Part shown: positions 26,230 through 31,687 of the stretch, in pieces
Numbering within the stretch: position 1 is the stretch's first letter
Layout: the number at the start of each line of letters is the position of its first letter
NCBI GenBank assembly: GCA_024275415.1
Contig: JAJRZD010000019.1
Coordinates: 30,001-62,000, forward strand
DNA from: an archaeon
GTDB taxonomy: Archaea; Asgardarchaeota; Thorarchaeia; Thorarchaeales; Thorarchaeaceae
Length of the DNA stretch: 32,000 bases
Direction: 5' to 3'
Made by a program: the position numbers and the translations under genes
Notes under the pieces: generated by a model
The model's database searches: none
What the model was told of the DNA's origin: nothing
The model's input: only the letters and a program-made list of their open reading frames with translations

Positions 26230-26934
26230 ATGACCAGAACCGATGGCAGAGCAAACAACGAACTACGACCTGTCACCATAACCCGCAACTACCTCAAACA
26301 CCCAGAAGGCTCAGTCCTCATATCGACCGGGGACACGAAAGTCATATGCACGGCCACCGTGGAAGAAAACACTCCCAGTTGGCTCAATGGCACCGGCCAG
26401 GGATGGGTCACCGCTGAATATGCGATGCTCCCGCGTGCCACGAACGAGCGTACCAACCGCCACAAGGTCTCGGGCAGGAACCAAGAGATACAACGCCTGA
26501 TCGGACGCTCCCTCCGCGCAGCAGTCGATATGAACCGGATGGGCGAAACGACAATCAAGGTGGACTGTGACGTGATCCAAGCAGACGGCGGCACACGGAC
26601 TGCCTCTATCACTGGCGCCTATGTCGCTATGGTCGATGCCCTTGCTTACATGATCGACATGGACATCATTCCCGACCTCCCCCTGCGAGGGAACGTGGCT
26701 GCTGTCAGCGTGGGTGTGGTCGATGACGAGTGCCTGCTTGACCTCTGTTATGTGGAGGACTCGGCAGCCCAAGTGGACATGAACATCGTCATGCTGGATG
26801 ACGAGTATGTAGAGGTGCAGGGGACAGGCGAACACTCTACCTTCGACAGGCAGGCGCTGGACGAGATGCTCGACCTCGCCAAGAAAGGCATCTCCCAGCT
26901 CATCAAGCACCAGTTGAGCGCCCTCGACCTGTAA
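26230..26934 (+). CDS. rph: Ribonuclease PH, bacterial type
   Basis: [78 protein letters not shown]. Confidence 0.93.
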
Positions 26935-27416: not shown

Positions 27417-27445
27417 TACTGTGCCGGGTGCATGAGTAAATTTGC
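27417..27445 (+). other. 5' strand of the pre-23S processing stem with BHB motif
   Basis: TACTGTGC-C-GGGTGCAT pairs with GTGCATCT-C-GCACGGTA (31317-31333). Central helix GAGT (27434-27437) / ATTC (31310-31313), each followed by an AAA bulge. Confidence 0.8.
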
Positions 27446-30020
27446 TATTTGCTGTATGACTGTTGGTGGATGGCTTGGTTGGCAAACCGATGAAGGGCGT
27501 GACAAGCAGCGATATTCCCTGGGTAGGCGCATGAAGCCTTTGATCCGGGGGTGCCCGAATGGGACTTCCTCGCATGGGTTAATACCCCATGTGGCTCCAG
27601 TGTCGCAGCTGGAGTGGGAACGCTCCGAACTGAAGCATCTTAGTAAGAGCAGGAAAAGAAAACAATAGTGATTCCCCTAGTAACAGCGAGCGAACGGGGA
27701 ACAGGCCAAACCGAATCCCATTGCGAAGAGTGATGGGAGATGTGGTGTGTGGGCACGGGATCTATCGCCGACGGACCTAAGACGAAGTCCTCTGGAACGA
27801 GGCGGCGGAGAGGGTGAAACCCCCGTAGTCGTAAAGTCCGGGCGTTTCCTGTGTTCCCGAGTAGCGCGGGTTGGTCTTCTCGCGTGAACGTCCCAGTCGC
27901 AATCTGGGAAGCCTAAATATTATGCCAATCCGATAGCAAACTAGTAGCGCGAGCGAAAGTTGAAAAGAGCCGCGGAAGCGGGGTGAAAAGCACCTGAAAC
28001 CAACAGTCTAAACAAAGGATGCTGATTAAAAGAGTAGACTCTCGGCGAACGAAAACGGAGTGATCCGTGTGTAGGAGCCGAGACGATCGGATTAGCATCA
28101 TCCGTCTTGAAACACGGGCCAGGGAGTTCACGGACGTGGCGAGATTAAGACATGAAGTCGTAAGCGAAGGGAAACCGACAAGCCCGCAGCCTTCGGGTGA
28201 GGGGCGAGGTGTGATAAGTGCCTGTAGTCACAGCCGTGACACGAGAAACCAGTCGATCTTGGCGTGGGCAGGGTGAAGCCGGGCGAAAGCTCGGTGGAGG
28301 CCCGAAAGGGTTCTGACGTGCAACTCGTTCCGTTGACCTGCGCGAAGGGGTAAAAGGCTTATCTAGACTGGTGATTGCTCGTTCTCCGCGAAGTTGGTCG
28401 TAGCCAAGCCCCACTCGAGGTATCATGTGGTGTAGAGCACTTTTGGAAGCGCCCGGGGGACGTCAAGTCCTTCACCTTCCCGAAAACTCCGAAGCTGCAT
28501 GAACTGTAGACGGTGGGAGACGGGTGCCCGGGGTAAGCCCGGCAGGCCGAGATGGGGAGAACCGAGAGTATGGTTAAGGTCCCTAAGTGCCGGATAAGTG
28601 CGGTGAAGAAGGGAGTCGAGAGCCCAAGACAGTCTGGGGGTGAGCTTAGAGGCAGCTATCCCCGAACGAAAGCGTAACAGCTCACAGACCGAGGCTCTCG
28701 GCCTTGAAAATGGACGGGGCTCAATCCGGCCACCGAGACCATACAGCACACGAGTACCATCGTGTGATCTGGTAGCGGAGCGATCTGGTAGGGTAGAAGT
28801 GGGGCCGTGAGGTCCCGTGGACCTGCCAGATTTGATGATCCTGGCGGTAGTAACAGCGTAGCATGGTGAGAATCCATGTCACCGAAAGGGAAAGGGTTCT
28901 TCGGCGATGCGTCATCAGCCGAAGCTTAGTCGGTCCTAAGTGGCGTCGTAACTCGAGCGTCACGAAAGGGAATCAGGTTAATATTCCTGAACCTCGGAGA
29001 TACATTTCACGGTAACGTAAAGCCGGGTCTGTGACTCATCTGGACAGGCCAAACGCAGCTCTCGCTGTGTTTAACACTATAAGCCTACCGAGTACCGTAA
29101 TGGTGAGAAGTAGGTGAAGGGTGGAATAGCGGGTGGTCGGACACCCGTTTGGCTCATTCCTGGTGACCTTGAAAAACAGATCCGGAAGGATTCTCCGAGT
29201 CCGTACCCAGAACTGACACAGGTTCCCTGGCTGAGAAGGCCAAGGTGTATCCGGGTCACTCCTCCTGAGGGAAATCGGCCAATTAGCGGCGTAACTTCGG
29301 GATATGCCGTGCCTGGGTTAGTGCAAGCTTTCCTAGGTCTTAGTAACTCAGGGGTCCCAACTGTTTAATACAAACATAGCTGACTGCGAGCGGGAAACCG
29401 TTAGTACAGTCAGTGAATCCTGGTCTGTGCCTGTCTGTTAAAACTCAGAAATGGGTCGAAGCACAGGTTAACGCCGGGACTAACTATGAGTCTCTTAAGG
29501 TAGCCAAATGCCTTGTCGGTTAAATGCCGACGTGCATGAAGGGAGCAATGAGGTCCCCACTGTCCCCAGGAGGAACCGGGTGAACCCACACCATACCGAA
29601 CAGTGTATGTACGCCCAATGGGAAGAGAAGTCACTGCGGAGGTTTACTACGCAGTCTGTCGTTGCCATTTCTGATATCATACAGAGTATAGTCAGGAGCG
29701 ACGAAGCACGTTCTCCGGGACGTGTGGATGCGACCGTGTAATACTGACTATGGTATTGGGGATGGCTAACCTAGACCAAGCGAGTCTAGGGACACCGGCA
29801 GATAGGCAGTTGGGCTGGGGCGGCACAGGGCTGACAAGAGATCAGCCCTGACCAATGGTGGACTCAGAGGCGACGGAAACGTCTCGTCGAGATCAAGGGC
29901 ATAAGTCCGCCTGACAGGATCCCTAACAGCAACGGATCCTGGGACGAAAGTCTGGCCTAGCGAACGTTTACATGCCAATTGTAGGGCGGTAGACATGACA
30001 AAAAACTTACCCCAGGGGTA

Positions 30021-30811
30021 ATCTCTAGCCGGTCGTCAAAAGGCGAGGATAATAAATACATCATTGCCATTTAATGAGTGGAAAAAAATGGAACGTTGGG
30101 ACATATCAGATGATGAAGACTTTGAGAAGGAGAATCTGGATAGACCAGAAACTCTGGTTCGAAGGTACATTGAACAGTTGTTCAAGGGTACAGATCGCAT
30201 CACTGAAACAATGTTAGCCAGCGTAAACATAGCCTATCTCGCAGGCATTACTGAAGATGCCCACCTTGGCCAAGGTGGAAAAGAAGGATATGTCTTTGAC
30301 ATCGAGTCTAAATCAGAACGATGGCTCACTGACTTAATTATGCCTGCACTCAGACTTGAGATTCCTGAAAAGGAAATTAGAGTCAAACGACGTGGTACCA
30401 GACCTGAGTATCGTATTCAGGTATGGGACAAAAAACTCGTTGAAACCCTTCGAGTATTATTCGAAAGACCTGGAATAGTCCGTCTGTGGAGTATTCGAAA
30501 TCAACGAGCGTGGGTGCGTGGTTTTGCTGATGCTGAAGGATCAGCAACTCGTAACACGGACAAACAACCACAATTTAGTTTCTACAACCAAAACTTGGAG
30601 AAACTTAAGATAGCAGGCGAAATCCTTGAAAAAGATGGAATCCACTTTGGCTTCTACCTACCAAATGGTAGAGATGTGTGGCAAATGTATCTAACAGGAC
30701 GCGAGAATCTAAAACGTTTCCTTGATGGGGAAGCTTCTGGGGTGAGCCATCCTGAGAAACGTTCACGCTTACTTCAATTCCTTGCTGAGTAGCGCCGACT
30801 AGGGACCCTAA
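30021..30811 (+). mobile_element. Archaeal BHB-type rRNA intron (791 nt) inserted after A2450 (E. coli numbering)
   Basis: Removal restores GGGGTA|ACAGAGTCGTC. The intron ends form a 12-bp stem (30022-30033 with 30794-30805; 2 G-U pairs, 1 mismatch). Helix GGGG/CCCT carries TAA and AAA bulges; cutting after the second bulge base gives exactly these boundaries. The intron does not end in G, so it is not group I. Confidence 0.9.
30088..30792 (+). CDS. Intron-encoded two-motif LAGLIDADG homing endonuclease (first motif degenerate)
   Basis: AYLAGITEDAHL (30238-30267) and AWVRGFADAEGS (30511-30540). ATG at 30088 preferred over the TTG at 30064. Visibly more AT-rich than the flanking rRNA. Confidence 0.9.
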   Translation: MERWDISDDEDFEKENLDRPETLVRRYIEQLFKGTDRITETMLASVNIAYLAGITEDAHLGQGGKEGYVFDIESKSERWLTDLIMPALRLEIPEKEIRVKRRGTRPEYRIQVWDKKLVETLRVLFERPGIVRLWSIRNQRAWVRGFADAEGSATRNTDKQPQFSFYNQNLEKLKIAGEILEKDGIHFGFYLPNGRDVWQMYLTGRENLKRFLDGEASGVSHPEKRSRLLQFLAE

Positions 30812-31094
30812 ACAGAGTCGTCGCGGGCAAGAGTTCATATCGACCCCGCGGCTTGCTTCCTCGATGTCGGCTCTTGGTATCCTGGCGTTGCATAAGGCGC
30901 CAAGGGTGCGGGTGCTCACCGATTAAAACCGAACGTGAGCTGGGTTTAGACCGTTGCGAGACAGGTTGGTTTCTATCTATTGGGCGTGTTGGTCAACTGA
31001 CGGCAAGATGTTACCGGTACGAGAGGAACGTAATGTCGCGACCAATGGTGTACCCATTGTCCGATAGGGCAGCGTGGGGTAGCTAAGTCGTAAT

Positions 31095-31127
<33 letters not shown>

Positions 31128-31300
31128 AGACCGGAAAATAGTTGACCACTTAAGTGACGGTCCTACCGAAGGAGCGCGGGGCTGGTGACAGCGACGCGTA
31201 GTCACGAAACGAGGGTTCTGCTAGAAGAGCAGGTTAATAGGGCAGGGGTGTAAGTACCGAGCTCCGGCGAGGTATTCAGCTCACTGCTACTAATACCCGA

Positions 31301-31333
31301 GGCAAGCGAATTCAAAGTGCATCTCGCACGGTA
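31301..31333 (+). other. 3' strand of the pre-23S processing stem with BHB motif
   Basis: Complementary to 27417-27445; ATTC-AAA bulge at 31310-31316. Confidence 0.8.
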
Positions 31334-31658: not shown

Positions 31659-31687
31659 CCGTTGCGAGACAGGTTGGTTTCTATCTA
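31659..31687 (+). repeat. Exact 29-nt direct repeat of 23S rRNA 30951-30979 (helix 93 region)
   Basis: CCGTTGCGAGACAGGTTGGTTTCTATCTA occurs at both loci; the flanks on either side are unrelated. Confidence 0.95.

Follow-up and report, generated by a model that had tools for sequence, protein, structure and literature searches.

A 791-nt insert which interrupts the 23S rRNA gene of a Thorarchaeial genome (assembly GCA_024275415.1) is very probably a mobile bulge-helix-bulge (BHB) intron with a homing endonuclease gene, located between A2450 and A2451 (Escherichia coli numbering) of the sole 23S gene of this genome. The stretch analyzed, hereafter the window, comprises 32,000 nt of contig JAJRZD010000019.1 (positions 30,001 to 62,000), and all positions given below refer to it. 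An initial annotation, made from the letters alone, had described in a probable Asgard genome a 791-nt insert between these two adenines, with a terminal stem, a 4-bp helix, two 3-nt bulges, an unpaired outer helix (relaxed motif) and a LAGLIDADG open reading frame (ORF). All of these elements are confirmed: the insertion point by intronless relatives and by numbering checked on the E. coli gene, the motif by the geometry at 30015-30018/30806-30809, the ORF by its Pfam domain, and the host by an endonuclease 89% identical to that of Ca. Thorarchaeota SMTZ1-45.

The insert and its splicing motif

The covariance alignment of the 23S gene has one large insertion, ~800 nt long, within domain V at the GGGAUAACAG segment, with a placement that is off by a few bases, and no other large insertion relative to relatives is found from 28004 onward. 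Within the assembly, the 23S gene is present in a single copy, and a DNA search of the own genome finds the insert and the surrounding part of the gene once.

The exact boundaries were obtained by searching positions 29500-31300 against 40 relatives. In the intronless ones (e.g., G006 of the same genus, G019, G015, G025, G030, and G031), positions 30019-30021 run straight into 30811-30813 and read GGGGTAACAGAG, and the extracted junctions are GGGGT-AA-CAGAG in all intronless relatives of the host's family. As the flanks are joined directly in these genomes, the insert is 791 nt long. In the annotated 23S gene of E. coli, the respective sequence GGGGATAACAGG occupies positions 2444-2455, in which the U is 2449 and the next two A are 2450 and 2451. 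The insertion point is between A2450 and A2451, one base before the catalytic adenine. However, the repeat formed by AA in the exon and AAA at the intron end and exon lets the boundary slide by one base either way at the DNA level, and because of it the position is indistinguishable at this level from L2449. The placement at 2450|2451 follows from the cutting rule of BHB introns and from an intron of the type found in G016, whose junction has no repeat and allows only A2450|A2451.

The exon bears A at 2444 and G at 2448 (positions 30014 and 30018; CCCCAGGGGUAAC), where E. coli and the Odinarchaeia have CCCCGGGGAUAAC. Both differences (G2444A and A2448G) also occur in intronless Thorarchaeial and other Asgard relatives, and are therefore traits of the lineage near the peptidyl-transferase centre and not a consequence of the intron.

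In a canonical BHB, each 3-nt bulge is located 3′ of its own strand of a 4-bp helix, which is formed by the last paired bases of exon 1 and by bases near the 3′ end of the intron. Here, the central helix of 4 bp comprises one G-U and three G-C pairs. The inner helix begins with U30022-A30805 and has seven pairs (30022-30028 with 30799-30805), followed by a C-A mismatch, three pairs, a bulged U and more pairs up to 30036/30792. The 3′ bulge has the catalytic A2451 as its third base, with which exon 2 begins. A cut after base 2 of each bulge would release an intron of exactly 30021-30811 and leave the product GGGGUA+ACAGAG, that is, the sequence of the intronless relatives.

Table 1. Features of the intron, its splicing motif, its endonuclease gene, and the host gene, with positions in the window
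Feature	Position	Strand	Evidence or remark
BHB intron, 791 nt	30021..30811	+	Missing in intronless relatives; RNA contigs show the exons joined across 791 nt and a back-joint over the same length
Exon-1 strand of central BHB helix, GGGG (E. coli 2445-2448)	30015..30018	+	Pairs with 30806-30809
Intron strand of central BHB helix, CCCU	30806..30809	+	Pairs with 30015-30018
5′ splice-site bulge, U2449 A2450 and first intron base	30019..30021	+	Predicted cut 30020|30021, from BHB geometry
3′ splice-site bulge, A A and A2451	30810..30812	+	Predicted cut 30811|30812; RNA joints agree within a 2-base ambiguity
Intron-terminal (inner, h′) helix, 5′ strand	30022..30036	+	Minimum free energy (MFE) fold; 7 and 3+3 pairs kept in 7 distinct termini
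Intron-terminal helix, 3′ strand	30792..30805	+	Its first base also ends the stop codon
Homing endonuclease gene, 234 aa from ATG	30088..30792 (stop included)	+	Database gene calls begin at the ATG
Possible Shine-Dalgarno-like GAGTGG	30076..30081	+	6 nt before the ATG; putative, from sequence
First LAGLIDADG motif, AYLAGITEDA	30232..30261	+	D57 presumed catalytic acid; A49, G53, and D57 invariant in 19 homologues
Second LAGLIDADG motif, WVRGFADAEG	30511..30540	+	W142, G145, D148, A149, E150, and G151 invariant in 19 homologues
23S rRNA gene	27442..31312	+	Rfam RF02540, archaeal large subunit (LSU) rRNA, 2403 bits, model 1-2987

The motif was compared among 16 introns found at 2450|2451, which fall into three groups with unrelated terminal sequences. 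The first consists of Thorarchaeial/f12 introns, including the present one. The second is an Odinarchaeial copy, with an endonuclease 48% identical and entirely different termini (AUGCG/CGCAU). The third is an ORF-less family in G016, G010, and G017. All 16 introns share the 3-4-3 register, and 15 of them have a canonical central helix. In the Odinarchaeial copy, the exon A at 2448 faces a U of the intron (GGGA/UCCC), whereas here a G faces a C (GGGG/CCCU), and the intron strand therefore tracks the exon base at 2448. An origin of the exon G through co-conversion or selection for the intron is hence rejected, since intronless relatives of several families also have this G. The chance of a 4-bp complement in a fixed register is ~0.02, and the complement is present in all three groups in spite of their unrelated termini.

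The inner helix h′ is strong and covarying. Among the seven distinct termini of the first group, every pair of this helix is kept and none is broken, and four pairs show compensatory double changes, from C-G to U-A at 30025/30802, from U-A to A-U at 30026/30801, from A-U to G-C at 30027/30800, and from G-C to A-U at 30028/30799.

An alternative register, which pairs CUCU at the 5′ end of the intron (30023-26) with AGAG of exon 2 (30814-17), was tried and rejected. With this pairing, the bulges would lie on the incorrect side of their helix strands, and a loop of 13 nt would remain. Moreover, the change of 30026 to A in the f12 copies disrupts this register but is compensated in the terminal stem.

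The homing endonuclease and the distribution of the intron

The ORF of the insert is intact and under selection, and its product is a LAGLIDADG enzyme of the monomeric two-motif type. It matches Pfam LAGLIDADG_3 (PF14528; E 6e-11, 42.8 bits vs. a cut-off of 22.5). Among proteins of solved structure, I-DmoI is the closest by sequence (E 5e-5), and E150 aligns with the Glu of the second motif of I-DmoI. The structure model built on 19 homologues (mean predicted local distance difference test score, pLDDT, 86) contains two repeats, each of a helix and four strands, in a pseudo-dimeric two-domain alpha/beta fold. In a Foldseek comparison, the top 34 matches of this model are I-DmoI chains (E 3e-10, template-modelling score ~0.7 on the target), followed by I-Tsp061I (rank 36) and intein endonucleases. 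At the N-terminus, ~40 residues form an acidic and variable stretch, which is poorly modelled and missing from some homologues. The pairwise ratios of nonsynonymous to synonymous substitution (dN/dS) among eight copies range from 0.13 to 0.24.

Besides the ATG, there is an alternative upstream TTG start at 30064, which would give 242 aa. Either GAGTGG or GGTGAT is located ~6-8 nt upstream of the start in this copy and in the Thorarchaeial homologues (L002-L004 and L025-L027), but not in the Odinarchaeial copy or in L030, the copy of Promethearchaeota DZ2M.271.

The initial annotation had also proposed a search of Asgard genomes for insertions at 2450, and this search returned homologous introns at the same site in several of them, that is, in at least four other Thorarchaeial species genomes, in Promethearchaeota DZ2M.271, and in one Odinarchaeia metagenome-assembled genome (MAG), as well as in seven metagenome contigs. 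Of the 30 matches from the pattern scan of metagenomes, 23 are located outside rRNA and are due to chance. In the survey of the phylum, a homologue of the endonuclease (E≤1e-10) was found in 10 out of 400 species genomes, five of which (including this genome) belong to the host's family; this count is a floor, many MAGs being without an assembled 23S gene. In L030, the intron is 665 nt long, is also located at 2450|2451, and has the same CCCU-AA 3′ end and an endonuclease which is 61% identical. The 23S gene that hosts this 665-nt BHB intron additionally contains a group I intron (RF00028, 61 bits; L030:8-257).

Relatives of the same family with an assembled site show three different states. 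Homologous introns are found in G001 and G007, unrelated ORF-less introns in G016, G010, and G017, and the site is empty in G006, G008, G009, G014, G015, and G019. The empty site retains the intact target sequence in G006, G019, and G015 among others. The similarity of the introns is at odds with that of their hosts, as judged from pairwise identities: G001, of the same genus, has exons 91.5/89.5% identical to those of the window and an intron only 72.7% identical, whereas the exons of SMTZ1-45 are ~87% identical and its intron 91%. Moreover, ORF-less introns of 145-148 nt, whose termini are the same, occur in two metagenome contigs and in the genus from which the 665-nt version comes. Such versions are the usual decay stage of the homing cycle. 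The patchy occurrence, the disagreement between intron and host similarity, and the ORF-less derivatives are therefore an indication of mobility. In the proposed cycle, the 234-aa enzyme would be translated from the intron RNA, and its predicted target is intronless 23S rDNA at the point which the intron splits; repair of the cut would then copy the intron in (homing).

Free-standing homologues of the endonuclease, with 35-49% identity, are found outside rRNA genes in L031/L041 (Ca. Borrarchaeum weybense), L042, and L043; in L043 the homologue is located ~1.3 kb downstream of the 3′ end of the 23S gene. None of the distant homologues L041-L044 is inside an rRNA gene.

These free-standing genes show that the family is not strictly tied to introns, and they could favour the view that the insert is a genuine BHB intron which is no longer mobile, inherited only vertically and with an endonuclease that is inactive or has another role (e.g., as a maturase). 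BHB splicing needs no maturase. Such a loss of mobility is unlikely. D57 and E150 are invariant, dN/dS is 0.13-0.24, the relationships of the introns depart from those of the hosts, and a genome of the same genus has the empty site with its target intact. Decay is exemplified by the ORF-less derivatives, and the present copy is not decayed.

Additional inserts were noticed in the 23S genes of the same family. In G010 and G017 (L010 ~2000-2045 and L012 ~1270-1305), a second insert of ~33 nt is located in CTTAC|CCCAGGGG, only ~10 nt upstream of the intron at 2450, so that two short introns seem to be placed almost back to back. Gaps between matches point to a further insert of ~430 nt in G009 at the equivalent of 30941/30942, to inserts of ~28 nt at ~30933 and ~216 nt at 30960/30961 in G008, and to one of ~30 nt at 30836 in G014. 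On the basis of such inserts, rRNA introns look common in the host's family.

Probable splicing in RNA and the splicing machinery of the host

The genome encodes two paralogues of the splicing endonuclease EndA (tRNA_int_endo, 101.6 and 70.1 bits), each with both Pfam domains, and the ligase RtcB (581.7 bits). By inspection of its sequence, the first EndA shows the Tyr/His/Lys pattern, and its closest match is the Aeropyrum pernix chain 3P1Z_B/3AJV_B (E 1e-43), which we take to be the catalytic subunit of the heterotetramer of that species. The second EndA is divergent and without an obvious catalytic His; its matches include chains named NEQ261 and PAE0789, presumably structural subunits. The presence of one catalytic-like paralogue and one without an obvious catalytic His suggests an (alpha-beta)2 EndA, and the enzyme of the host is probably of the broad-specificity crenarchaeal type. 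In a preprint, two EndA paralogues, likewise read as (alpha-beta)2, are reported for 44 of 60 Asgard genomes (10.64898/2026.10.13.758758).

According to the mechanism proposed here, the intron would be transcribed as part of the pre-23S rRNA. The GGGG of exon 1 would pair with the CCCU near the 3′ end of the intron, and the intron ends would form a long stem stacked on that helix, so that the stacked helices would present the two 3-nt bulges on opposite strands and 4 bp apart. The splicing endonuclease, probably the (alpha-beta)2 EndA, would then cut at both predicted sites (table 1), and RtcB would ligate the exons, restoring GGGGUAACAGAG, and circularise the intron.

Traces of both products were sought in Logan contigs with ≥93% likeness to the window from one DNA run (X1) and three RNA runs (X6, X12, and X15). 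In the metatranscriptome X6, a contig of 165 nt (depth 3.3) continues without a gap from 30748-30810 into 30020-30087, which corresponds to a back-joint of 791 nt. Such a junction is what a circularised intron would give; it agrees with the predicted ends to within the 2 bases by which the repeat leaves it ambiguous, and it is hard to explain otherwise. The contig differs from the window at 5 out of 131 bases (~96% identical) and hence derives from the copy of a close relative. A second contig of X6 (depth 8.3, shorter side 25 nt) joins 30019 to 30811 and skips 791 nt, as in the spliced form. The two junctions, on which the initial annotation had proposed to check the splicing, are thus both seen at the predicted ends in an environmental relative, each in a single low-depth contig. 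The evidence for exon ligation and for a circular intron in RNA is weak but specific.

In X12 and X15 the contigs stop at 30021; they neither show a joint at the site nor cover the interior of the intron, and these runs are no evidence. The shares of the stretch in all runs are small (≤0.27), and no habitat is named from them. In X12, one contig (depth 8.6) leads from 29826 directly to 30811 and omits 984 nt. No junction of this kind was predicted, and it probably belongs to another organism or is an artefact of the contig.

Several observations weigh against a spliced BHB intron. The outer helix on the exon side (CCCCA vs. CAGAG) is unpaired in every copy, and the strict hBHBh′ form is absent; the motif is therefore a relaxed one. 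Relaxed motifs are reported to be cut by the broad-specificity (alpha-beta)2 and epsilon2 EndA enzymes (PMC5829648). MFE folding of the whole region and of 84-nt mini-substrates recovers the terminal stem and not the central helix, and favours a self-hairpin of CCCCAGGGG in exon 1. Since those C residues belong to another helix in the pre-rRNA, thermodynamic folding supports neither way, and the case for the central helix rests on comparison and not on folding. As far as the RNA is concerned, there is one low-depth contig per junction, both from one run and from a relative that is not provably this organism, and the exon joint of X6 could come from an intronless strain.

The missing outer helix, together with RNA contigs which are not from this very organism, could also mean that the intervening sequence is excised without religation, giving a fragmented 23S rRNA, or that the interrupted gene is non-functional. 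Nevertheless, this is highly improbable. The gene is the only 23S gene found in an assembly that is 93% complete, and the catalytic centre would be severed by a break at A2450/A2451. In RNA, one contig joins the exons exactly, the junction of the circular intron is a signature of an endonuclease acting with a ligase, and RtcB is present.

The notion of a self-splicing group I or II intron with a LAGLIDADG gene comes from the neighbouring L2449, a well-known insertion site of group I introns in the rDNA of eukaryotes and organelles. Group I introns are also known from archaeal rRNA genes (PMC6125680), and the 23S gene of L030 has one beside its BHB intron. Even so, a ribozyme is scarcely credible here. 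No Rfam intron family is found at the gathering score in the window, or at E≤1 in the insert, and RF00028 has no match, yet the same model detects the group I intron of L030. Outside the ORF, the insert has just 67 nt on the 5′ side and 19 nt on the 3′ side, which is too little for a ribozyme core; the ORF-less versions are 145-148 nt long, and what is conserved corresponds exactly to the elements of a BHB.

An assembly chimera or a mis-binned sequence, which a MAG of 127 contigs with 4.5% estimated contamination might suggest, has a negligible likelihood, because the same intron is found at the same site in several independent assemblies, a DNA contig of the unrelated run X1 (30458-30849) bridges the intron and exon 2, and the junctions restore the conserved rRNA sequence exactly; the worry that the insert is chimeric, raised in the initial annotation, is thereby removed. 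A spliced and mobile BHB intron remains the interpretation adopted.

With regard to the surroundings of the intron, the assembly has a size of 3.5 Mb and is estimated to be 92.9% complete, and the window belongs to its contig C122. The 16S and 23S genes are unlinked; a partial 16S copy is located on another contig (C77), and the Rfam search found no 16S or 5S gene in the window. An exact 29-nt duplicate of positions 30951-30979 of the 23S gene, the second match of the own-genome search, is located at 31659-31687, ~350 nt downstream of the rRNA gene. An ORF of an RNase PH-like protein (26230-26934) is located ~500 nt upstream of the 23S gene in the same orientation.

Relation to known mobile introns

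The kind of element is already well known from the introns of I-DmoI, I-Vdi141I, and I-Tsp061I. The literature searched, whose scope stopped short of subscription literature and the CRW intron tables, describes neither a BHB intron at 2450|2451 nor any rRNA intron with an endonuclease gene from an Asgard archaeon. Penev et al. (PMC7594248) mention that intronic regions were removed from new sequences and that introns were analysed, and the main text gives no sites. The expectation of the initial annotation that the element extends both the host range and the site accordingly stands with respect to this literature, but the intron is not unique to the present genome.

The findings bear on several aspects of rRNA introns. 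The range of endonuclease-bearing BHB rRNA introns, so far mainly hyperthermophilic Thermoproteota, is extended to Asgard archaea of marine, aquatic, and sediment metagenomes, with a new insertion site at the base adjoining the catalytic A2451. Several independent introns share the relaxed motif and form a natural set of substrates for the specificity of the Asgard two-paralogue splicing endonuclease. Such introns also lengthen and break 23S genes in MAGs, and disturb rRNA-based phylogeny and the design of primers and probes. The endonuclease is a new I-DmoI-like scaffold, with a predicted long target in universally conserved rDNA.

The 23S intron of Desulfurococcus mobilis that encodes I-DmoI is similar to the present one in being nearly filled by one ORF, in forming the BHB from its termini and the exon, and in its location in a conserved region of the 23S gene. 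Excised introns of this class reportedly circularise (Kjems and Garrett). The site is different, being at 2450|2451 in the peptidyl-transferase centre here and in the helix-69/71 region in the case of I-DmoI. The hosts also differ, a hyperthermophilic crenarchaeon on the one hand and a Thorarchaeial MAG from sediment-type metagenomes on the other. The two enzymes share only ~23% identity in the fold alignment, the present one has the variable acidic N-terminal extension of ~40 aa, and its intron is without the outer helix on the exon side.

Endonuclease-bearing BHB introns are further represented by Vdi141.L1927 (I-Vdi141I), its Aeropyrum pernix analogue, and the 16S introns of Thermoproteales (I-Tsp061I). 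Introns of this kind occupy rDNA hot spots that eukaryotic group I introns use as well (PMC2602781), and ORF-less remnants are found at the same sites (PMC4496867). In contrast to I-Vdi141I, which is a homodimer (PMC2602781), the enzyme described here has two motifs in one chain, and the sites and hosts are different as well. The 665-nt intron of L030 is of the same family and at the same site; it has an endonuclease with a shorter N-terminus, differs in two compensated pairs of the stem, belongs to another Asgard family, and shares its gene with a group I intron.

The group I introns at L2449 (the yeast mitochondrial omega intron and those of myxomycete and fungal nuclear rDNA) are placed, at the DNA level, at a position that is indistinguishable (2449, 2450, or 2451) and often carry LAGLIDADG genes, such as that of I-SceI, the endonuclease of the omega intron. 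On the contrary, they are spliced by a ribozyme, whereas a protein enzyme would act here and no ribozyme core is present, and the present endonuclease groups with archaeal intron enzymes and not with I-SceI. As a distant speculation, positions 2449-2451 could be a hot spot that Asgard BHB introns share with the group I introns of eukaryotic nuclear and mitochondrial rDNA, and the Asgard elements could be descendants of group I introns which lost the ribozyme and were captured by the tRNA-splicing machinery. An old proposal, quoted in PMC6125680, derives BHB introns from group I introns. If this were true, Asgard genomes would hold intermediates of a switch of intron type in the lineage nearest to eukaryotes. 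Taken as a BHB intron in its own right, the element at A2450/A2451 overlaps with the group I site L2449 and is one more case in which unrelated mobile introns converge on the same rDNA target.

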